64,000 bases of DNA from Candidatus Latescibacterota bacterium (GTDB lineage: Bacteria > Latescibacterota > UBA2968 > UBA8231). Position numbers and translations under genes: made by a program. Of this stretch, positions 1,626 to 54,849 are shown piece by piece. Location: contig OZ242214.1 in assembly GCA_965206595.1 (NCBI GenBank), positions 1,920,001 to 1,984,000 of the forward strand, in the 5' to 3' direction. Positions within the stretch are counted from its first letter, which is position 1, and the number at the start of each line of letters is the position of its first letter. The notes beneath the pieces were generated by a model. It was given only the letters and a program-made list of their open reading frames with translations. It was not told the DNA's origin and made no database searches.

Positions 1626-2369
1626 GTGAAAGATGAACGTGTATTTGTAGGAGATCTGACGCGCAAGGAGTTTCGGGAGCGCATGCAGGCGGGCACAATA
1701 CAGGCAGCAATCGTTCCTACGGGTGCTACCGAGCAGCACAACGAACATCTGGAGATGGTACACGACATCCTGCATTGTGCTCACATGGCTGAACAGGCAG
1801 CCAGGCGCCTGCTGCCGCGGGTCGTGGTTGCTTCTCCCATATCGATCGGTGTATCCGAGCACTGGATGGAGCACATCGGAACCCTCACGGTCAGGCCCGA
1901 GATTTTCTGCGAGTACGTGTTCGACGTCTGCCGCTCCCTGCAGAGGGCCGGTATCGGGAACATCCTCATTCTGAACGGCCACGGAGGCAACGTAAAGCCG
2001 CTGATGAGACGAATAGACGAGTACCGGGACAAGCTGAAAATCAACCTGAGGTTCCAGTCCTACTGGGACGTGTACGATCCGGAGCTAGTTCAACAGACCA
2101 TGGAACTGGGAAGATTGCCAGGTCACGCCGGCGAGTACGAAACCTCGACCATGTATGTTCTGGCCCCGGAAAGGGTTCATACCGAGGATATCGTCGACGA
2201 GGGTGGAGTCTTGGCAACTCGCGAAAAAGGAGAGCGCCTGATCGAGCCGGTGATCGCCGGGGTAGCCCGGATCCTGGAACAGATGATCGCCGGCGAGAAA
2301 GTCGACTGTCCACCGAAGACCTTCGGACCCGAAGGACCTCTCCACATGATGACAGGAGAGCCTCTGTAG
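1626..2369 (+). CDS. Creatininase / creatinine amidohydrolase family protein
   Basis: PTGATEQHNEHL, GVSEHW..GTL, LNGHGGN and HAGEYETS motifs; GTG start after AGGAG. Confidence 0.88.
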   Translation: MKDERVFVGDLTRKEFRERMQAGTIQAAIVPTGATEQHNEHLEMVHDILHCAHMAEQAARRLLPRVVVASPISIGVSEHWMEHIGTLTVRPEIFCEYVFDVCRSLQRAGIGNILILNGHGGNVKPLMRRIDEYRDKLKINLRFQSYWDVYDPELVQQTMELGRLPGHAGEYETSTMYVLAPERVHTEDIVDEGGVLATREKGERLIEPVIAGVARILEQMIAGEKVDCPPKTFGPEGPLHMMTGEPL

Positions 2370-2528
2370 GAAACTGCATAGCGGTTTTTCCCTGTGTTTG
2401 CCAATCGGCTCGTGCCGGTGTTATTTTGGATTCCACTTTCCTTCCTCATCCGACATCCCTTCCTGCATCGCGCTGCCTTCCCCGGGAATCCGCGACGAAC
2501 CAGGCTCGCTGAAACCGGAACCTCCTGC

Positions 2529-3299
2529 GTGGAAACGATCGTTGCCGCCATAATTGCCGGCCTGCTCCTGCTCTGGGGGGGCGTCTTGGCACTCCTGAAA
2601 ATGGTGGAGCGCTTCGAGAGCAAGCATGTTCTCGGAATCGGTGCGTACACCACTGCAGTCGCCGGACTGGTAATGGGCCTCGTCCTCTTCATTGCTCATG
2701 AGCGTCAGCGGGAACACCGGCGCGAACTGCAGGAGCAGATGGAGGGGGTTACTGAACGACTTGGCGATCTCAGTGAGCGCCTGGTCAGCCAACTGGCGGA
2801 GAAGGCAGACCTGACCGCCTCCGAATTCGAGGTGCGCTCTCGCCTCCAGAGCGAGAAGGTCGCCCATAAGCAGACCCGGGACACACTTGGGGAGTTGGGT
2901 GCGCGATACGGCGAACTCAAGGCGAAACTGGAGAAAGAACGCCGTGCTCGCCTGCAGTACCAGGAGGGGCAGAACGAGAAGGCGGAGGAGCGCTTCCGAA
3001 AAGAGGAGGAGCGCTACGAGGGGATTCGCGAGGTTCTCGACCTTCACCGGGGCACGACGAAGGGGATGCAGAAGCAACTAGCACACATTCAGGATGAGGC
3101 CGCCCGCATCCAGAAGCAGGTGTCGGGATTGAGCGCCAGTCAGAACAGCCTGATCGGCAAGGTGAGTTCAACCGCAGAGGTCCAGGACCTGAACACCCGA
3201 AAGATCGACGCCGTGGCCCGGAGCCAGGCTTCACTTTACCGCGACATGGCGCGAACCATGGCGCAGGTCGACAGTCTTTACAGATGGAAAAGAAAGTAG
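2529..3299 (+). CDS. Hypothetical protein with two N-terminal TM helices and a long coiled coil
   Basis: Two hydrophobic helices followed by about 190 aa of E/R/K/Q-rich heptad sequence; start uncertain (ORF open from 2394). Confidence 0.7.
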   Translation: METIVAAIIAGLLLLWGGVLALLKMVERFESKHVLGIGAYTTAVAGLVMGLVLFIAHERQREHRRELQEQMEGVTERLGDLSERLVSQLAEKADLTASEFEVRSRLQSEKVAHKQTRDTLGELGARYGELKAKLEKERRARLQYQEGQNEKAEERFRKEEERYEGIREVLDLHRGTTKGMQKQLAHIQDEAARIQKQVSGLSASQNSLIGKVSSTAEVQDLNTRKIDAVARSQASLYRDMARTMAQVDSLYRWKRK

Positions 3300-3328
3300 C
3301 CCCGGTTCCTTATTGCGTGGAGAAACAG

Positions 3329-4165
3329 ATGCGTGTCTTCTGGAGAAGCGGTATTGCCGTCCCCTTTGCAAGTGCGGTTTTGTTGACGTTGTCCTGCGGA
3401 CCTTCCGAGGAAGAGATCCTGTTTGCCGAGCTGCAGGAGGATTTGACCAAAGCCAACACGACCATCGACAGCCTGAACTACACAGTCGAATCTTCGAATA
3501 TGCTTATCGACGATATGAGATCCCGCGTCGACAGCCTGCAGCGGGTTGACACCAAGCTGCTGCAGTCGGTTCAGCGCCTCAACAAGGCGGTCAAGAAATG
3601 GCGGGATCTCGCCCGGGATCACAAGCGCAAGAACGAGCAGCTCACCGCGGAGATCCGGAATCTCAAGCGCGAAAAACAGGCGGATATTCAGACCATCTCC
3701 AAGCTGCGACGGCAGGCCGACAGCCTGAACGCGACCTTGCTCGATGCCCATACCAGCATCCGGAGGCAGGAGGACCACATTCGGCGCATGGAAGTCGATC
3801 TCGTCCGTGCCCGGGAGGACGCTGCCGCCTTGCGACGGGCGCAAACTTCGGTGCGTGTCTATGCGGCGACCGAATCTTTTCTGGAAGAGAACAGCTACCT
3901 GAAGTCCTCGCGGGCCTTCCGCCGGGGTTTTCGAAAGTCGTTCAAGATGACGAAGAAACCGGAGCCGAACGACCTCTCGGTCAAGCTGGTAAAAGTAGGA
4001 GAGACACTGATGCTCGAAGGGGAGGTAAAGGCCCTGGTCGATCGGTACGGTTCGCTCAAGAAAGGGGATGATTACAAGTTGGACCGGAGCGAGGGAATGG
4101 CGATCCTGACTTTCTCCAACGAGATGCTTGGCGGCGCCGATGTGCTCGCCATAATGAAAGAGTAA
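3329..4165 (+). CDS. Coiled-coil lipoprotein
   Basis: Signal peptide ending in lipobox-like LTLSC, GGAG RBS, long coiled coil, beta-rich C-terminal domain. Confidence 0.72.
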   Translation: MRVFWRSGIAVPFASAVLLTLSCGPSEEEILFAELQEDLTKANTTIDSLNYTVESSNMLIDDMRSRVDSLQRVDTKLLQSVQRLNKAVKKWRDLARDHKRKNEQLTAEIRNLKREKQADIQTISKLRRQADSLNATLLDAHTSIRRQEDHIRRMEVDLVRAREDAAALRRAQTSVRVYAATESFLEENSYLKSSRAFRRGFRKSFKMTKKPEPNDLSVKLVKVGETLMLEGEVKALVDRYGSLKKGDDYKLDRSEGMAILTFSNEMLGGADVLAIMKE

Positions 4166-4235
4166 ACGAACAGCCGAATAATCCTCGCTCCACATTCAGT
4201 CCCGTCGTGGCGAGTCCCATCGGCGGCGGGACTGC

Positions 4236-4655
4236 TTACCAGCCGTGAACGAACACGGCTGTTCTCACCTTCTCCCCCGATTGATCCGTCGATAGAAGTG
4301 AATCGGCGTACGCGGCATGGCGCACGATCTGCTCGCGGCTGCCGCCTCGCCGAAACAGGTGAAGGTCCGCTTCCGGGTCGCTGATCAGCGAGGCTACCTG
4401 GCGGCGAAAGTCCGCTTCGTTCATGCGGCGCAGGATTTTCGTTCCGTCCGACGACAGCCCGAACCCGTGGTCGCCGTAGACGACGACCACGTCCCCCGTC
4501 CTCGGATCCTGTTTGTGAACCCGCCAAACCGGCTTGGATACGTTGAGAATCATGATGCCGAGGCAGAGTGTCAGCATCATGATGCCGAGAAACAGCTCTT
4601 TGCTGATGTCGTGTTCAACTACATCGGCGTCGACCTTACGCAGGAAGCGGCTCAC
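4236..4655 (-). CDS. Single-TM small protein, putative atypical ExbD/TolR-like partner
   Basis: One TM (SKELFLGIMMLTLCLGIMILNV) with an acidic residue at its start; GTGA overlap with the upstream channel gene. Confidence 0.55.
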   Translation of the reverse strand: MSRFLRKVDADVVEHDISKELFLGIMMLTLCLGIMILNVSKPVWRVHKQDPRTGDVVVVYGDHGFGLSSDGTKILRRMNEADFRRQVASLISDPEADLHLFRRGGSREQIVRHAAYADSLLSTDQSGEKVRTAVFVHGW

Positions 4656-5428
4656 GCCTGCGCTCCTTCATCGCGAGCCTGGAGCCACATCTCCTCGAGC
4701 CTGCCCAGCCGCCGGATCAGGTAGTCGGTGGCTTTGCGAAGCGGCAGAAAAGCGAGCAGTGCTACCAATGTAGTCTGGAAAGCGAGGACAAGGCCGTTCG
4801 CCATGGAGCTCAGCACCTTGAAGGTTTCCGTCGCCTCGTTGATGAAACCCAGTTGCTGCGCCATCAGCAAAATACCGCACACGGTTCCGAGGTAGCCATA
4901 GAAGGGAATCCGCGATAGATCGTTGCGGACATTCAACAGCGGCGTTCCCAGCACCCCAACAAGCTCTTCGAGCGCCTCGTCATCCCGCATCCTGATGTCC
5001 GCGTAATGCTGGTGACCGCGCCGGAATTTCGACAGGGCTTGCTGGCGCTGGTAGGCCAGTGTTTCCCGCGGAGGATCTTCCCTGGATGCCCAGGCAGCCT
5101 CTTCTGACTGCAAGTGCAAGGCGGTGCGTATCAGAACCAGCAGATGGCCGGAAGCCGCGCCGGTTACCAGTAAATACGATCCGCGCCCCACCCACTCGAT
5201 GAGGTTGAAGCGGGCCGTCTGGGAGGCGAAGTAAAGGACGATGGCGCCGATTGTCAGTCCGGAAAGGGCTCCCAGAACGCTGGCTATTTCTCGCAGCCGG
5301 GGGGTGACGATTCCGTACTCCCGCTCGCGTCGAGAAATTTCGCGGGCACGGAGCAGCAACACGAGGCTGCCACTGGCCCCACAGGCCAAAAGGAACAGGA
5401 CGGCGACGACGTAGGAAAGCCAGTTCAC
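4652..5428 (-). CDS. MotA/TolQ/ExbB proton channel family protein
   Basis: PFYGYLGTVCGI and GLVLAFQTTLVAL match the two channel-helix signatures; three extra N-terminal TMs; GTG start overlaps upstream TGA. Confidence 0.8.
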   Translation of the reverse strand: MNWLSYVVAVLFLLACGASGSLVLLLRAREISRREREYGIVTPRLREIASVLGALSGLTIGAIVLYFASQTARFNLIEWVGRGSYLLVTGAASGHLLVLIRTALHLQSEEAAWASREDPPRETLAYQRQQALSKFRRGHQHYADIRMRDDEALEELVGVLGTPLLNVRNDLSRIPFYGYLGTVCGILLMAQQLGFINEATETFKVLSSMANGLVLAFQTTLVALLAFLPLRKATDYLIRRLGRLEEMWLQARDEGAQA

Positions 5429-6708
5429 GAGCTTTCCCAAACCCCAGCTTCCTTCGAGGTCGATTCCGCGCGGAACAGCTTCCACCACCGGTGGGACGCT
5501 GCCCCGGTGTAGACAGACAGTATAGTGAACACCAGCAACAACCGGGCGTTGGGTTCGTCTCTCCCAATCCCGAGGGCTTCCCCTGCTGGGGGCGTGGCGA
5601 CCGGACGACCACCCTGCGGTCCGAGGTCGCGGGGAGGCTGATAATCGAGACGGCGGTCTTCCTCCCCCTTTCCCGACCGGAGTGTAAACTCCTGGTGCGT
5701 CGCCGCGGACACCCCCTTCAACTGGCGCGCCGGCCGCAGGACGAGTTTGCGGTCGTCCTGGGGCAGAAGCTTCACCCATTTTAGCAGTCGGGCTGAAGTT
5801 GCCACGCTTGCCAGCTCTTCGGAAAGGGGCTCGCTCCTTCCGAGGCTGTAGGCAATCGGCGAGCGATGGGAACCCCTGAACCGCAAGTACGGCTCAACCC
5901 AGGTGTGCCTCTGCTCCAGGGCTTGTGCCAATCGGCGGCGCTCCTGCTGGAGATGGGCAAGGCGGCTGATCGCGACGTGGAAATCCATCGGCTGTTCTTT
6001 TCCCCAGGTGGGGGGCAGGCCGGGAACTGGCGCCCTGCGGTTTCCGGCTGCGCGAACATCCTCGGCAGAGAAGCGTGCACTCAGCCAGATCTCCCCGAAA
6101 AGCTTCTCCCCCCAGACGACCTTTGCTTCGGGGATATCCGGTTGTGCGTGGGTGTAGAAAATTTCCTCGGCCATCTGGTTACCGCTCCCCCCCTTCCCCC
6201 GCTTCCAACTCCCTTCACGAGTCGTTACCACCGGACTCAGGCCGCCGTCGCTCCATTCGACGTAGAGACCTGCCATGAAACCGCTCTCCACCCGGTCCGT
6301 GTCCCAGCAGTGGGCCTGCAAGAGGTTGTTTTTTCGCAGATAGAACTCGGGAATCTCTACTCGTGTCGGGATCAAACGGGTAGCGCTGACCGGGGTACCG
6401 TTGAGGAACAACTCCGCTTCGTCATCCGCCCAGAACAACAGCACGAGTTGTGCGTCGTTCGGCAGCAGGTTCCTGGGGGCGGATTTCTTGGTGAGCTCAT
6501 CGACGCTGTCGGGACCGAGTTGCCGCATGATCGTGTCGACGGCCGCGGCCACAGCATTGTACTGCCGCCGCAGCGACAGGCTCTCGCCGTCAACCCAATC
6601 CGTCCGATGGCGACCCCCGGCGCCCGAACTCGCGTCGATGACGACCGCGACGAAAAAAACCGCAAGGGAACATCCTCCCGCCAGCAACAGAAGCATCGGT
6701 CTATACAT
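5425..6708 (-). CDS. Hypothetical membrane-anchored protein with beta-sandwich (lectin/galactose-binding-like) domain
   Basis: N-terminal hydrophobic signal/TM; ADDEAELFLNG...NNLLQAHCWD...GFMAGLYV...SWK pattern; C-terminal TM followed by basic residues. Confidence 0.65.
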   Translation of the reverse strand: MYRPMLLLLAGGCSLAVFFVAVVIDASSGAGGRHRTDWVDGESLSLRRQYNAVAAAVDTIMRQLGPDSVDELTKKSAPRNLLPNDAQLVLLFWADDEAELFLNGTPVSATRLIPTRVEIPEFYLRKNNLLQAHCWDTDRVESGFMAGLYVEWSDGGLSPVVTTREGSWKRGKGGSGNQMAEEIFYTHAQPDIPEAKVVWGEKLFGEIWLSARFSAEDVRAAGNRRAPVPGLPPTWGKEQPMDFHVAISRLAHLQQERRRLAQALEQRHTWVEPYLRFRGSHRSPIAYSLGRSEPLSEELASVATSARLLKWVKLLPQDDRKLVLRPARQLKGVSAATHQEFTLRSGKGEEDRRLDYQPPRDLGPQGGRPVATPPAGEALGIGRDEPNARLLLVFTILSVYTGAASHRWWKLFRAESTSKEAGVWESS

Positions 6709-6977
6709 CAGCTTCCAGGCTATTCTGAATTTGACAAAGCTGGTGTCAGAAAAACGGTTGTGGCAAACAAACCGTACGGGAAATCGCACGAATCATTCCC
6801 CCCGAATAGCCCGGGGAAATTTGACGTTTCGCCGGATTCCAGGTGTCAGGGATTCCAATGCTCCCTAGGCGGAACCGAGCCAGTGTTCAGGTCGACTCCA
6901 TGCAGCGAAAGGTGCCGGAAATCCGTTTGCGATTCGATGTAAGCCCGAGCCGGTTACCGAGGTCGGTGGGTGAGAGG

Positions 6978-7748
6978 TCAGGTGTTCGACCTCGACTGTC
7001 CCCCGTCGACATTGATGCACGTCCCAGTCACCCAGCTGGCCCGGGGAGAAGCGAGGAAGGCGACCACCGCGGCCACCTCTTCGGGGGTTCCGAACCTGCC
7101 CGAAGGGATATTCTCCTCCACGAATTTGGCGATCCTCTCCGGGTTCTCCTTCTGGCGGCGTTCCCAGCTTCCGCCCGGGAAGACAATGGACCCGGGGGCT
7201 ACGGAATTGACGCGAATCCCCTTCTCAGCCGCTTCCCTGGCGAAATTGGCAGTCATGCTGATCATCGCCGACTTGGCGGCGTTGTAGGAGATCGGACCGC
7301 CCGTCTCTCGACCGAAAATCGAGGAGATGTTGATGATGCTGCCGCCGCCTCGCTTCTCCATGACCGGTACTGCTGCCCTTGACATGCGTACGGCCGAGAA
7401 GAAACTCAGGGAGAATACCCGGTCCCATTCGTCGTCCGTGATGTCGGCAAATGGTGTCCATACCGATCCCCCCACATTGTTGACGAGGATATCGACCCCC
7501 CCATACCGGTCGCTGGCGGCCGCGACCACGCGTTCGGACTCATCCGGGGTGGTTACGTCGGCGACTTCCGAGCCGACCTCGACCCCGGCCTCTGCAAGTT
7601 TCGCCGCGGCGGCATGCAGCGGTTCCGCGGTTCGGGCGCAGATAAACAGATCGGCTCCCTCAGCGGCCAGACAGCGTGCGATTCCAAGGCCGATGCCACG
7701 GCTGGCGCCGGTAACCAGAGCGACCTTGCCTTTCAGTTCGAGATCCAT
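6978..7748 (-). CDS. SDR family oxidoreductase
   Basis: TGASRGIG, NNVG, YNAAK catalytic motif, VDGG. Confidence 0.92.
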   Translation of the reverse strand: MDLELKGKVALVTGASRGIGLGIARCLAAEGADLFICARTAEPLHAAAAKLAEAGVEVGSEVADVTTPDESERVVAAASDRYGGVDILVNNVGGSVWTPFADITDDEWDRVFSLSFFSAVRMSRAAVPVMEKRGGGSIINISSIFGRETGGPISYNAAKSAMISMTANFAREAAEKGIRVNSVAPGSIVFPGGSWERRQKENPERIAKFVEENIPSGRFGTPEEVAAVVAFLASPRASWVTGTCINVDGGQSRSNT

Positions 7749-7766
7749 CGAATGTTCCCTTCTTTC

Positions 7767-8723
7767 CTAGGCGGGGCTTTTCAGGACGAGGAGCAGGACA
7801 TACACCACACACAGTCCGAGGAGGACGACGCCTTTCCACCTGTCGAAACGGTATCCGATCCGCATCAGCCCCAACATCGTCAAGACCACGACGAGCATGG
7901 CGGGGAACATGAAATGGATGACTTCTTCCTCCACCTTCAGGTCGTTGACGGTAGCCGAGGCTCCTGCTATCCAGCAGATGTTGAGGATATCCGCCCCGAG
8001 AATATTTCCGACCGCGACGCTCCCCTGTTTTTTGAGGGCCGAGGCGACACAGGTGGCGATTTCCGGGATCGACGTTCCCAGGGCGATCAGGCCGAGAGCG
8101 ACGACGGTCTCGGAAACTCCGAGGCCGAGAGCGACCACCTCCGCTGATTCGACGATGTACTCGCTGCTGACGACGACCCCCCCCAACCCGACGGCAAACA
8201 GCAGCAGTATCCGCAACAACGAGCGTTCCGGTACACCTTCGGGCACGTCATCCTGGCTGGGATTGCGCCGTCGCTGGACGTAAGTGAAAACCAGGTAACC
8301 GCAAAAACCGACCACGAGGAGAAGCCCTTCCCAACGCGACAAAGTGCCGTCGAAGCAAAGGGCGTAGGCAACCACATCGACGCAGATCAGGAAAACCGCC
8401 GCGGCTCTGAATACCGGCCTGTCGATCAGGACCACAACCGGTGAGAGCAGCGCGACCAGGGGAAGCGCGAGGACGTCGTCGTAGATGACCGAACCGACGG
8501 CATTCCCTAGAGCCAATTCCGACTTACCTGAAGCAGCGGCCTGTACCGAAACCGCCAGCTCGGGGGCAGTGGTTCCGATACTGACGATGACGATGCCGAT
8601 CAGGATGGCCGGTACCTGCAGGCGGCGGGCAAGATCCACGGCTCCCTCGACCATCCAGTCGGCACACTTCCCCAAGACGGCAAAACAGAGCACCATGATC
8701 CCTGCAGCAGTCCAGAAATCCAT
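7767..8723 (-). CDS. Calcium/sodium antiporter (YrbG/CaCA family)
   Basis: Two alpha repeats: GTTAPE...GNAVGS and GTSIPE...GNILGA. Confidence 0.9.
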   Translation of the reverse strand: MDFWTAAGIMVLCFAVLGKCADWMVEGAVDLARRLQVPAILIGIVIVSIGTTAPELAVSVQAAASGKSELALGNAVGSVIYDDVLALPLVALLSPVVVLIDRPVFRAAAVFLICVDVVAYALCFDGTLSRWEGLLLVVGFCGYLVFTYVQRRRNPSQDDVPEGVPERSLLRILLLFAVGLGGVVVSSEYIVESAEVVALGLGVSETVVALGLIALGTSIPEIATCVASALKKQGSVAVGNILGADILNICWIAGASATVNDLKVEEEVIHFMFPAMLVVVLTMLGLMRIGYRFDRWKGVVLLGLCVVYVLLLVLKSPA

Positions 8724-8954
8724 CGATTATCTTGTTGAAACTGAGGGAGTTACGGTGAAAGAAGAGGATTTGAAAAGGCCGCTTAGGTTAGGACCCACCT
8801 CCCCCCTTGTCAAGGGAAGGGATCTACTTTCAGATAGAAGAACAAGGGGCGGTTTCACTGATCTGCATGGCTTCGAGGTGGGAGTCAGACCGGTTTGGCA
8901 CTGCCCCCAACCAGGTATTTCCGGGTGGTTGCATCTTCGTACACACAAGTCTTT

Positions 8955-8992
8955 TTGTAATAATTATTCTTGCCAGGGCATAATTATTACCT
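8955..8992 (+). promoter_or_regulatory. Tandem ArgR (ARG) boxes upstream of argG
   Basis: TAATAATTATTC (8958-8969) and GCATAATTATTA (8978-8989), each 11/12 to G(A/C)ATAATTATTC, with a 20-bp period. Confidence 0.7.
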
Positions 8993-9064
8993 AACTTCAC
9001 CTACTTCGGAGTAGGCGAAACAAGGCCCTTACGGTCATCCCATCGAGAGGGAGAAGAAAATCAC

Positions 9065-10318
9065 GTGGAAATCACGGCCAGCGATCTCAAGGGCCGGACG
9101 GTGGTCATGGCCGTTTCCGGAGGACTGGACAGCTGTACCATAACCCATTGGCTCGCACGGCAGGGAGTCGGGGTAATCGCCTACACCGCTGACCTCGGAC
9201 AACCGGATGAAGATGACGTCGGAGACGTGCGCGCGCGCATGCTGGCATGCGGCGCAAAGGAGGCCGTCCTCGATGATCTCAAACCTGAAATCGCCACCGC
9301 TGGACTGCAGCTAGTTCAGGCATCGGCACGTTATGAAGGCGGGTACTGGAACACGACCGCCATAGCCCGCCATGTGGTGGTTGCGGCAATGGTCCCGGTG
9401 TTGCGACAACGTGGAGTCTCGATTCTGGGCCATGGCTGTACCGGTCGCGGCAACGATCAGGTGCGCTTCGAACTGGGGGTCCAGATGCTCGATCCCGCAA
9501 TCGGTGTGTACGCTCCCTGGCGTGACCCTGCATTCCTTCAGGAGTTCGGGGGTCGCCGGCAGATGATCGACTACTGCCGTGATTTCGGCCTGCCCGTCAG
9601 GGCGACTCACGACTCCCCCTATTCGACCGACGCCAACATGCTGGGATTGACCCACGAAGCGGGGGAACTCGAAGACCTCGCCACCCCGGCCTGCCGAATC
9701 GATCCGGGCATGGGACGGTTTCCCGTGGATGCACCGGACGAGCCCGAAGCTTTCGAGGTCCACTTTGAAAAGGGTTTGCCGGTGAAACTCGGAAAGCGCG
9801 AGGTTACCCCTGTCGAAGCGCTCGAGACCTGCAACCAGATCGCCGGCCGCCATGGGGTGGGGATCGGACTGCACACCGTCGAGAACCGCTTTGTCGGCAT
9901 CAAATCCCGGGGGGTGTACGAGGCGCCCGGCATGGAGCTACTGGGGCGCAGTCACGAGTACCTGCTGCAGTTGATCCTCGACCGCCGCTGCCGGCGATTG
10001 TACGATCAGATATCGTCCCACATCGCCGAACAGATCTACCAGGGATACGGGTTCGACACCGCGACCCAGGCATCCTGGGCTTTCGTAAAACAGCTGAGCC
10101 GCATGGTCACCGGAACCATTTCCTCGACACTCTACAAGGGGAATGTGTCCTTTCGGGCCGCGGCGAATGCGCCGTACAGCCTGTACGACGCCGACACCTC
10201 CTCAATGGAGGAGATCGGTGAATTCGACCACCGCGATTCCCAGGGATTCCTCGGGGTTCTCGGTGTCTCCGCCCGGGCCCTCAACCACGCTGGTCAGAGC
10301 CGTTTGCGGGATGAATGA
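9065..10318 (+). CDS. argG: Argininosuccinate synthase
   Basis: SGGLDS, HGCTGRGNDQVRF, YSTDAN, ENRFVGIKSRGVYEAPG. Confidence 0.96.
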   Translation: MEITASDLKGRTVVMAVSGGLDSCTITHWLARQGVGVIAYTADLGQPDEDDVGDVRARMLACGAKEAVLDDLKPEIATAGLQLVQASARYEGGYWNTTAIARHVVVAAMVPVLRQRGVSILGHGCTGRGNDQVRFELGVQMLDPAIGVYAPWRDPAFLQEFGGRRQMIDYCRDFGLPVRATHDSPYSTDANMLGLTHEAGELEDLATPACRIDPGMGRFPVDAPDEPEAFEVHFEKGLPVKLGKREVTPVEALETCNQIAGRHGVGIGLHTVENRFVGIKSRGVYEAPGMELLGRSHEYLLQLILDRRCRRLYDQISSHIAEQIYQGYGFDTATQASWAFVKQLSRMVTGTISSTLYKGNVSFRAAANAPYSLYDADTSSMEEIGEFDHRDSQGFLGVLGVSARALNHAGQSRLRDE

Positions 10319-47675: not shown

Positions 47676-48578
47676 ATGTTTGGCAGGACATACCCGACGC
47701 TCACTCGCGCTTGGCCGGCGGCTGTCTCCATGGCGGTTGCCCTGCTGTCACTTACCCGTTGCGCCCCGGACCCGGAAATCACTTCAGATGACGGTGCAAC
47801 GATGCTGCTCATCCCGGAAGGGGAATTCACCATGGGTGCGGAGGAGGGGGAGCTCGCGGATTTCGAAATGGGCAGGTACCTCAACTACGAAGCGGAGCGC
47901 CCTTCCCGGCGGGTTTCATTGGCCAGCTTCTACATCGATCGCCACGAGGTGACCAACGCTCGTTACCGCAAGTTTCTCGCCCACGTGAAGGCGTCCGGCG
48001 ACGAGGCCTATCGGCATCCCGAGCAGCCGGATGGACAGGATTACAACCAGGATCTGATGACGGAAAATCTCGCCGGCGACGACCAACCGGCCGTGTGCGT
48101 GTCCTGGTACAACGCCCATGCGTATTGCCAATGGGCAGGCAAACGCCTGCCTACCGAAGCGGAGTGGGAGTACACTGCCCGGGGGGGAGATCCCTACAGG
48201 AAGTATCCCTGGGGAGGGAGTGAACCGGACGGCGACGGCATCTGGTGGGCGAACTACCAACCGGCTCGAGGACGCGGCGCCGACGGGTACCGGCTGTCGG
48301 CACCGGTCGGATCCTTTCCCGACGGCGTCAGTCCCTTTGGCCTTCTCGACATGGCGGGGAACGTCGAGGAATGGGTCCAGGACTGGCACGACCCCCATTA
48401 TTACAGGCGCTCAAAAGAAACCCTGAATCCAACCGGCCCGGCAAAGGGGCGCAACAAGGTCGTCAAGGGGGGCTCGTACGCCACCGACAAATGGCACATC
48501 CGCGTCGCAACCCGCCTGTTCGGAAGACCTTCGCACCGGAGCGTGCAACTCGGATTCCGCTGTGCCCGCGATCTTTAA
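47676..48578 (+). CDS. Exported FGE-sulfatase (SUMF1/EgtB/PvdO) domain protein
   Basis: IPEGEFTMG, HEVTN, RLPTEAEWE, DMAGNVEEW, KGGS, GFRCA. Confidence 0.9.
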   Translation: MFGRTYPTLTRAWPAAVSMAVALLSLTRCAPDPEITSDDGATMLLIPEGEFTMGAEEGELADFEMGRYLNYEAERPSRRVSLASFYIDRHEVTNARYRKFLAHVKASGDEAYRHPEQPDGQDYNQDLMTENLAGDDQPAVCVSWYNAHAYCQWAGKRLPTEAEWEYTARGGDPYRKYPWGGSEPDGDGIWWANYQPARGRGADGYRLSAPVGSFPDGVSPFGLLDMAGNVEEWVQDWHDPHYYRRSKETLNPTGPAKGRNKVVKGGSYATDKWHIRVATRLFGRPSHRSVQLGFRCARDL

Positions 48579-54024: not shown

Positions 54025-54849
54025 TCAGGCCGCCCGGTAGACCTGAGCCGGCGTGGCATACCCCAGCGCCTGGTGAAAGCGATCCTGGTTGTAAAAATCG
54101 AAATAGCGATCCACCCCCTGCCGGATCTCGGCTACCGTCTCGTATCCCTTCAGGTAGATGTCCTCGTATTTGAGCGAACGCCACAAGCGCTCGATGAAAA
54201 TGTTGTCCCAGCAGCGCCCGCGGCCGTCCATGCTCATGCGCACCCCGGCGGCCTCGACCCGCTGCGTGAACTCGCTGCTGGTGAATTGCGATCCCTGGTC
54301 GGTGTTGAAAATCTCGGGGCGCCCCTGGGCCAGCGCCTCGTCCAGCGCTTCCAGGCAGAAGGCCGCGTCCAGGGTGTTGGCCAGACGCCAGGAGAGCACG
54401 TAGCGGGAGAACCAATCCATGACCGCCACCAGGTAAACGAAACCGCGTCGCAGCGGCAGGTAGGTGATGTCACTTGCCCATACGAGGTCGGGCCGATCGA
54501 TCACCCGCCGGCGCAGCAGATAGGGGTAGATTCGGTGCGAGGTGTCGGCGGCCGACAGGCGCCGGCGCACAGGGATCGCCTGCAGACCCAGGACCTGCAT
54601 GAGCCGGTGTACGCGTTTGTGATTGACCGCGTAGCCCTCCTGACGCAACGCCTGCACGAGGCGACGCACGCCGTAGAAAGGATAGCGGGTGTAGAGGCGA
54701 TCCAGGGCGTGCATGAGCTCGAGGCCGAACGGGTCCGGCGGCCGCGGCCGATAGTAGTAACTGGATCGCGACAGCCCCAGCAAGGCGCACTGGCGCGCCA
54801 CGCTCACCCGCGTATGGCCGACTTCGATCATCGCCCGGCGCTCAGTCAC
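54025..54849 (-). CDS. IS3 OrfB (DDE integrase core)
   Basis: WASDITY, NTDQGSQF, DNIFIERLWRSLKYE. Confidence 0.93.
   Translation of the reverse strand: MTERRAMIEVGHTRVSVARQCALLGLSRSSYYYRPRPPDPFGLELMHALDRLYTRYPFYGVRRLVQALRQEGYAVNHKRVHRLMQVLGLQAIPVRRRLSAADTSHRIYPYLLRRRVIDRPDLVWASDITYLPLRRGFVYLVAVMDWFSRYVLSWRLANTLDAAFCLEALDEALAQGRPEIFNTDQGSQFTSSEFTQRVEAAGVRMSMDGRGRCWDNIFIERLWRSLKYEDIYLKGYETVAEIRQGVDRYFDFYNQDRFHQALGYATPAQVYRAA

Follow-up and report, generated by a model that had tools for sequence, protein, structure and literature searches.

Three open reading frames (ORFs) on the minus strand of a Candidatus Latescibacterota genome, referred to here as genes A, B and C, form a conserved operon that may encode an ion-driven motor. 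They lie within the window (the whole stretch of 64,000 nucleotides that was analysed), which belongs to a genome assembled as one contig of 7.05 Mb. Gene A (5425-6708) encodes 427 amino acids when translated from its ATG, gene B (4652-5428) encodes 258 and gene C (4236-4655) encodes 139, the latter two from a GTG start. At each junction the stop codon of one gene overlaps the start codon of the next in a GTGA, at 5425-5428 for A and B and at 4652-4655 for B and C; the ORFs and both overlaps had been noted in a preliminary description of this DNA and were found again. A GAAGGAG is located 7 nt ahead of the start of C, and a GGAAG ahead of the ATG of A. In the NCBI annotation B is named a 'MotA/TolQ/ExbB proton channel family protein', and both A and C are named 'hypothetical'.

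Translation of gene A could also begin at a GTG at 6789, which would lengthen the protein by 27 amino acids. A promoter-like -35/-10 pair with 9 of 12 consensus matches (6722-6749, minus strand) is present just upstream of the ATG, and constitutes weak evidence; the consensus scan returned four sites in the region where 0.5 were expected. A terminator-like hairpin (6791-6772) is found between A and the SDR gene upstream of it. Pair and hairpin weakly favour the ATG at 6708 as the start of A, and a transcription unit of their own for A, B and C. No Rfam family reached its gathering score across positions 2000-9200 of the window. The trio is surrounded by the SDR gene, a Ca/cation antiporter-like gene and coiled-coil proteins. 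A TonB, TolA, flagellar or Zorya gene recognisable by Pfam does not adjoin it, in agreement with the preliminary description.

The junctions are tight in related loci as well. Among 14 such loci, for which the starts were picked heuristically, the gap between A and B is at most 10 nt in 12 and that between B and C at most 14 nt in 13, giving a range of -4 to +14 nt in 12-13 of the 14; a 4-nt overlap occurs six times between A and B and eight times between B and C. The closest public loci all stem from Candidatus Latescibacterota metagenome-assembled genomes. In all eight public loci that contain the whole of B, this gene is flanked by A and C, the ninth locus being cut inside B. The loci L008, L023 and L024 have retained the trio while every other neighbour is different.

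The distribution of the three genes was determined in 168 Latescibacterota genomes, divided over families f1-f14. Gene A was found in 111 genomes (f1 58/75, f2 1/3, f3 22/22, f4 29/31), gene B, at E<=1e-40, in 106 (f1 56/75, f2 0/3, f3 21/22, f4 28/31) and gene C in 107 (f1 57/75, f2 0/3, f3 21/22, f4 28/31), and none of them in the 39 genomes of the ten families f5-f14. All three occur together and adjoining in 105 of the 168 genomes, which represent three families of one class; the gene-neighbourhood survey thereby bears out the co-occurrence on which the preliminary description had made its proposal depend. Wherever coordinates are listed B is located between A and C, as in G141 (A 6314983-6316194, B 6316222-6316980, C 6316986-6317399). 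Each gene has one match per genome, the exceptions being G163 (for A) and G070 (for C), where one gene is in two pieces. A alone occurs in six genomes (G119, G155, G049, G062, G063 and G037), C alone in G126, and B together with C in G068; the genomes with such a partial trio are for the most part fragmented assemblies or have their matches at contig ends. Genus g18 is split, with five genomes that carry the trio and five that do not. The trio is a real, conserved and lineage-restricted operon.

The product of gene B belongs to the MotA/TolQ/ExbB family, and PF01618 (MotA_ExbB) is matched in its last two membrane helices. The Pfam match, with 26.8 bits against a cut-off of 22.9, covers residues 174-247 only, a conserved channel hairpin (4688-4909, minus strand) that is likewise apparent from the alignment and from the TolQ profile match described below. 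PF01618 is present in 111 of the 120 listed homologues of B, and NCBIfam yields weak ExbB, TolQ and MotP rows for B, all far under their cut-offs. A profile of 57 homologues matched the TolQ structures 8odt and 9kpz (E 0.004, positions 175-254) and, besides TolQ chains, nothing meaningful among the solved structures. Residues P175, Y177, G178, Y179, G181, T182, G185, F217, T219, T220, P229 and K232 are invariant, and in a residue-by-residue alignment to TolQ 8odt B contains the family motif G-x-x-G-T-V-x-G as well as the Thr/Pro of the last helix.

Hydropathy analysis of B gives strong helices at approximately residues 7-25, 48-66 and 212-230 and weaker segments at 82-104 and 175-193, the last of which is equivalent to the second membrane helix of TolQ according to the alignment. 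Because the loop at 27-48 holds seven Lys/Arg residues, the topology requires the segment 82-104 to be a third helix; the motif W79, G81, R82, S84, Y85 is conserved at its periplasmic start. B is predicted to have five membrane helices, with the N-terminus outside and the C-terminus inside, two helices more than ExbB/TolQ. Its cytoplasmic loop comprises 68 residues and a long cytoplasmic tail is lacking. The channel signatures put forward in the preliminary description are supported by PF01618 and by the TolQ match, and the three extra N-terminal helices proposed there have to be reduced to two. Two further ideas concerning B were rejected. The sequence 'LLACG' might mark a lipoprotein, but its Cys is not conserved in the alignment, and the long open frames in some genomes might represent a B-C fusion, but the frames of B and C differ in L022.

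In the product of gene C a short N-terminus in the cytoplasm is followed by a single membrane helix and, in the periplasm, by a domain with the TolR/ExbD fold. The protein database contains 188 homologues, the best 120 of which are 59-99% identical and nearly all 138-142 amino acids long. An alignment of 61 sequences, the query and 60 of these best 120, revealed that the membrane helix is nearly invariant. Residues H15, D16, S18, K19 and E20 are identical in 61/61, and invariant positions are also found in the helix region (F22, G24, M26, M27, L28, L30, G33, I34, L37) and after the helix (P42, V43, W44, R45). The single hydrophobic core, residues 21-37/39, follows directly upon SKE, in line with the one membrane helix opening at SKE that the preliminary description had reported. 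The genome's own TolR has Asp21 directly ahead of a 17-residue hydrophobic core, and Glu20 of C occupies the same place, with D16 four residues before it. The conserved Asp of ExbD/TolR is thus replaced in C by a Glu, in 61 of 61 sequences, and both the position and the conservation of this Glu accord with what had been suggested earlier. The segment D-I-S-K-E (residues 16-20; 4596-4610, minus strand), of which D16, S18, K19 and E20 are invariant, lies where the membrane helix begins on the cytoplasmic side, and we propose E20 as the ion-binding carboxylate.

The relation of C to ExbD and TolR is one of fold. No family was found for C in Pfam, NCBIfam or PADLOC at E<=1, OmpA-like families included; its profile had no hits among PDB sequences at E<=10, and an hhalign comparison with five of the genome's own ExbD/TolR proteins yielded a probability of 0.3%. 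Searched against 1.84 billion cluster representatives, the profile retrieved 10 proteins at E<=0.001 (one full-length, the others fragments), none of which is ExbD-like. In the AlphaFold2 model of C (pLDDT, the predicted local distance difference test score, 76.5) residues 4-39 are helical, and a beta-beta-beta-alpha-beta-alpha-beta domain comes after them. Foldseek returned no PDB match for it at E<=0.001, the top rows being unrelated long-helix or alpha/beta proteins. In a VIA comparison with 48,161 chains the top match was E. coli TolR 5by4 (Z 7.0, root-mean-square deviation 3.6 A, 87 residues aligned over residues 40-139 of the model), followed by ExbD 8p9r (Z 6.9), 8vgc and 8vgd (both Z 6.6) and 8pek (Z 6.3), and by TolR 2jwk (Z 5.6). 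These six best matches are all TolR/ExbD periplasmic domains, and the next one over that domain has a Z of 4.4. Since all values remain below Z 8, a range in which according to the tool likeness can reflect a common arrangement, we claim that C shares its fold with TolR/ExbD and do not claim homology; in that sense the earlier label 'ExbD-like partner' holds. C ends at residue 139, right after the TolR-like domain, and the lack of an OmpA-like module agrees with the earlier reading.

The score of B is barely over the family cut-off, and C has a Glu rather than an Asp and no sequence link to ExbD. Both observations speak for a trio that is not a motor, B being a degenerate channel fold and the complex a passive one, for example a sensor of envelope stress or of glycan. 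The channel-lining Thr, Gly and Pro residues of B and the whole helix of C are, in contrast, invariant or nearly so across the class. Such invariance is more in keeping with an ion path in use than with a relic, and we consider a passive complex distinctly improbable.

B is one of five PF01618 matches in its genome, which also has six PF02472 matches. A cluster ExbB-ExbD-ExbD, followed by a TonB_C protein, is located at ~5.09 Mb and a TolQ-TolR cluster at ~0.23 Mb. Given these separate Ton and Tol clusters, the trio is not the Ton or Tol system of the cell and is therefore extra, and C, with neither a Pfam match nor an hhalign relation to the resident proteins, is by its sequence not an ordinary ExbD. 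The genome further contains a pair of ExbD genes (G000:C1:3760559-3761403) without an adjoining ExbB, and an apparently solitary ExbB-like gene at 3803780-3804532. Another orphan MotA/ExbB gene (PF01618, 38.9 bits) is found in L013 (G000:C1:2998180-3000664), where the gene before it encodes a membrane-anchored protein that matches VWA weakly and the gene after it an FHA-domain protein, among numerous genes for type IX secretion system (T9SS) cargo. L013 resembles the class 'TMH-tethered vWA plus tolQ without tolR' as described in PMC12204202.

Gene A matched no family in Pfam, NCBIfam or PADLOC. It has 123 homologues, 60 of which were aligned, and diverges faster than B or C, with 40-45% identity where C retains 60-70%. 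The N-terminal hydrophobic segment (residues 1-26; 6631-6708, minus strand) has its hydropathy peak at 6-24 and a pLDDT <50. In the 60 aligned homologues the N-terminus is short and unconserved, variable in both length and sequence, and it typically ends in small, Ala-rich residues (...STAAAADD, ...VSGAKTP). Judging from these sequences it is probably a cleavable signal peptide and not an anchor. The AlphaFold2 model of A (pLDDT 77) has helices at 41-73, a beta-sandwich at approximately 86-239, a helix at 242-267 and helices at 299-323, then a low-confidence stretch and finally a helix at 388-423 with a pLDDT of ~93. Residues 388-410 (5479-5547, minus strand) of this last helix form the C-terminal membrane helix, which is followed by a nearly invariant WW (W408, W409); L397 and Y400 are nearly invariant as well. 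The hydropathy of this helix is below the threshold in the copy studied here and strong in homologues such as that of L008. A short cytoplasmic tail ends the protein. The preliminary description had placed the beta-sandwich between two hydrophobic anchors; the sandwich and the C-terminal helix are retained, and the N-terminal anchor gives way to a segment that resembles a signal peptide.

The beta-sandwich head (residues 86-239; 5992-6453, minus strand), delimited by the strands of the model, carries the invariant motifs WADDEA and DTD..ESG, and the invariant residues in full are W93-A-D-D-E-A98, N103, R111, P114, P120, N128, D136-T-D138 and E141-S-G143. In VIA the head showed a weak likeness of fold to the Pleurotus lectin 6kbj (Z 7.7) and to the N-domains of GH78 rhamnosidases (3w5n, Z 7.6; 2okx, Z 7.4; 6i60, Z 6.3; 6gsz, Z 6.2), the latter with ~111 residues aligned in each case. 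Foldseek gave no PDB match for the model of A at E<=0.001; its weak rows include clostridial neurotoxin binding domains, GH2 and the calcium-dependent CBM60, from which we draw only the description 'beta-sandwich'. The profile of A met chance rows only among PDB sequences (E 1.2-4.1), and in the ESM Atlas the head fell with clusters of the Bac_rhamnosid_N type at 0.89, which is a lead only. The earlier description of a lectin-like sandwich thus finds weak support in the fold searches; 'lectin-like' is a plausible, unproven label for the modelled head.

Between the last periplasmic helix and the membrane helix of A there is a low-confidence linker of ~65 amino acids, with pLDDT <50 at residues 332-347 and 364-384. 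It is poorly conserved save for three islands with invariant motifs, L289-G290...L295, L330-K-G332 and R352..D355-Y356.P358-P359...G363. In the last of these, the juxtamembrane motif (residues 352-363; 5620-5655, minus strand), R352, Y356 and P359 are invariant and D355, P358 and G363 nearly so. In PMC10907165 it is described how an ExbD dimer captures a short motif of TonB, the D-box, by recruitment of a beta-strand. By analogy, residues 352-363 of A are a candidate docking motif. A does not have the layout of TonB or TolA: a TonB_C or TolA domain is absent, its conserved membrane helix is C-terminal, and a scan of the genome for TonB_C identified two places only, neither of which is A.

It is conceivable that B and C form a real ion-driven motor of which A is not the output but a stator anchor, or an assembly or regulatory factor. 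The head of A could then, for instance, hold the complex to peptidoglycan or to some other glycan in place of the missing OmpA-like domain, and the work would go to a cytoplasmic partner via the 68-residue loop of B, or to two coiled-coil envelope proteins encoded next to the trio. The lack of a peptidoglycan-binding domain in C and the resemblance of the head of A to carbohydrate-binding jelly rolls are in line with such a tether, whereas nothing points to a cytoplasmic partner. The two coiled-coil genes, which had gone unmentioned in the preliminary description, are both convergent to the trio. The first, cc293 (3284-4165, plus strand), encodes a periplasmic coiled coil with a C-terminal globular domain; its product is a lipoprotein in f1, according to its lipobox, whereas in f2-f4 a membrane helix serves as its anchor, and it has a weak Cbp1-family lead. 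The second, cc301 (2394-3299, plus strand), encodes two membrane helices and a long coiled coil, and judging from the alignment of its homologues it likely starts near 2511. A paralogue of cc293 is found at G000:C1:6917314-6918114.

The TolA-like layout of cc293 (membrane anchor, long helix, C-terminal globular domain) would suit an output protein, and in f1, f3 and part of f4 this gene keeps its place by the trio while other neighbours change. Both cc293 and cc301 occur in 117 of the 168 genomes with identical tallies per genus, and in those f1 and f3 loci that were examined, as in one f4 locus (L026), they are direct neighbours of the trio. They are, on the other hand, convergent and outside the operon, in genus g31 a long distance separates them from the trio, and they persist without it in genus g15 and in G093; moreover, where they have been lost jointly with the trio, this could have been one deletion of adjoining genes. 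We conclude that cc293 and cc301 are possibly associated with the trio, and that a motor in which A is only an anchor or accessory factor is rather unlikely. In the f2 genome G037 the two coiled-coil genes follow A. The locus concerned (L021, G037:C1:332000-344000) contains an intact A in the region 4591-6404 with both genes still downstream of it; where B and C would be expected there is instead a transposase ORF of IS200/IS605-like type (5904-6404, minus).

The genome contains 92 matches to the C-terminal sorting domain of the T9SS as well as SprA (G000:C1:6657307-6662565), and no match to GldL or GldM, so the trio might be thought to serve this system as the counterpart of GldL-GldM. That motor is likewise of the 5:2 type, with a partner that spans the periplasm, and carries its ion-coupling Glu on GldL. 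In the trio, by contrast, the Glu is on the putative axle, and B and C match no GldL/GldM model. In none of the 168 genomes does GldM exceed its cut-off; as the GldL and GldM models matched no control genome either, their absence is not shown by these searches. SprA occurs in 163 of the 168 genomes, and since all ten families and the genera without the trio are among them, the two distributions differ. No T9SS gene adjoins the trio, and another orphan MotA-like gene is situated inside a cluster rich in T9SS cargo. A role in the T9SS is therefore very unlikely. Within the window a FGE-sulfatase/GldK-like lipoprotein is encoded at 47676-48578 (plus strand; TIGR03525, 100 bits, below the cut-off of 350). 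It was rejected as the GldK of a gldKLMN set, being a lone FGE-sulfatase-type lipoprotein gene with no gldL, gldM or gldN after it.

B resembles MotA and PomA in belonging to the same superfamily, and the partners MotB and PomB share with C a carboxylate near the cytoplasmic end of the helix. The trio differs from these flagellar systems in the absence of an OmpA-like domain in C, of a large cytoplasmic torque domain in B and of adjoining flagellar genes. A pair resembling MotA/MotB without flagella is also what characterises Zorya (ZorA-ZorB), and one might suppose that B and C, as orphan motor genes, belong to such an anti-phage defence module with a MotAB-like envelope sensor. PADLOC did not report ZorA or ZorB for A, B or C at E<=1; it gave no defence row at all for A and C, and the one row for B, to AbiEi, is weak (E 0.032, 11.5 bits). 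Effectors resembling ZorC or ZorD are not found nearby, and the long cytoplasmic tail is missing from B. The trio is single-copy, with conserved synteny, a stable chromosomal context and vertical inheritance across the class, unlike a defence island. We regard a defence function of this type as extremely improbable. Elsewhere in the window an ORF at 54025-54849 (minus strand) reads by eye as an IS3-family transposase, with an integrase core and DDE-type motifs.

The closest likeness in organisation is to TolQ-TolR(-TolA) and ExbB-ExbD(-TonB). Like these systems, the trio has the PF01618 hairpin in its ring subunit, a one-helix partner with a carboxylate at the cytoplasmic end, the TolR/ExbD fold and no OmpA module, and, from the same operon, a third protein that is periplasmic and anchored in a membrane. 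The differences are that B has five helices rather than three, that C lacks sequence homology to PF02472 and has Glu instead of Asp, and that A is encoded first and has the reverse topology (a signal peptide and a C-terminal anchor), with a beta-sandwich head in place of a TonB_C or TolA domain. In a 2025 study (PMC12204202), vWA proteins tethered by a membrane helix and encoded beside tolQ/exbB homologues are described as new motor-linked force transducers. These are comparable to the trio in that an orphan TolQ/ExbB-like gene is syntenic with the gene for a periplasmic, inner-membrane-anchored protein other than TonB; however, the vWA proteins are anchored N-terminally and the beta-sandwich protein A C-terminally, and the trio includes a gene for a TolR-fold axle.

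The reading that we favour, and hold to be somewhat more probable than all others together, is that A, B and C form a lineage-specific and divergent ion-driven motor of the 5:2 type, with a Glu-bearing axle and with A as its periplasmic partner. From the family of B and the fold of C we infer the mechanism of such a motor, with its 5:2 stoichiometry and the conduction of ions, and we further infer a contact of A with the motor and the binding of glycan. B would be the ring subunit, the last two helices bearing the channel motifs and the two extra N-terminal helices lying on the outside, and a dimer of C would be the axle within the ring. Glu20, with Asp16 one turn below it, would replace the canonical Asp in binding and releasing the ion. 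Ions would pass between the Thr/Gly face of the last two helices of B and Glu20 (with Asp16) of C, and their passage would drive a rotation or a power stroke. On the periplasmic side C would expose its TolR/ExbD-fold domain, devoid of a peptidoglycan-binding module. A, exported by means of its signal peptide, would stay in the inner membrane through its C-terminal helix and present, on a helical stalk, the beta-sandwich head, the acidic pocket of which is invariant; translational coupling may keep its amount in proportion to those of B and C. The passage of ions through B/C would move or remodel A, probably by way of its invariant juxtamembrane islands, docked on the periplasmic domain of the C dimer as the D-box of TonB is on ExbD, and/or of its helix, docked on the two extra helices of B. 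The head of A would hold a glycan-bearing component of the envelope.

Several observations weigh against this motor. The family match of B spans only ~75 residues and is barely over the cut-off. For C, homology to ExbD/TolR was not detectable at the sequence level (Pfam, hhalign, PDB profile), its fold scores are all below Z 8, and we know of no characterised precedent for a Glu that replaces the Asp of the axle. The fold matches of A are weak too (Z 6.2-7.7, none in Foldseek at E<=0.001). All three genes are lacking in the complete or near-complete close relatives G106, G107, G164 and G167 and in ten families of the phylum, and the trio is therefore dispensable; G037 keeps A without B and C. 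Finally, relatives are not independent samples of co-occurrence, for which reason counts are given here and no statistics.

A bolder extension of the same idea would make the trio a new class of trans-envelope 5:2 motor, with a Glu axle, a five-helix ring and a C-anchored, lectin-like 'inverted TonB' that pulls on a glycan layer, perhaps together with cc293 and cc301. Its setting would be a polysaccharide-degrading phylum with T9SS cargo and SprA and no recognisable GldLM motor. This extension is speculative and, in our estimation, unlikely. Among the papers listed by literature searches on MotA/ExbB relatives and on the T9SS of Latescibacterota, none describes the trio and none contains the term 'Latescibacter'. 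A 2025 survey of MotAB relatives groups the non-flagellar homologues as 'generic ion transporters', proteins of unknown function included (PMC12505986). The term 'Latescibacter' does not occur in the main text of PMC12505986 or PMC12204202, the supplementary tables of which could list homologues.

The general importance of the trio is limited, as many genomes of the phylum, complete ones of close relatives among them, do not have it. Each new partner of this type of motor (TonB, TolA, FliG, GldM, the Zorya effectors, the vWA proteins) has revealed a new envelope process. If the motor proposed here is real, C would represent an axle family that has no sequence link to ExbD/TolR and whose coupling residue is a Glu, a point of consequence for how strictly an Asp is needed there. 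B would be a ring subunit with two extra helices, and A a motor partner of reversed topology with a head resembling sugar-binding domains. For A and C, two 'hypothetical protein' families conserved throughout most of the genomes in one class of an uncultured phylum, the analysis provides a name and a testable hypothesis.

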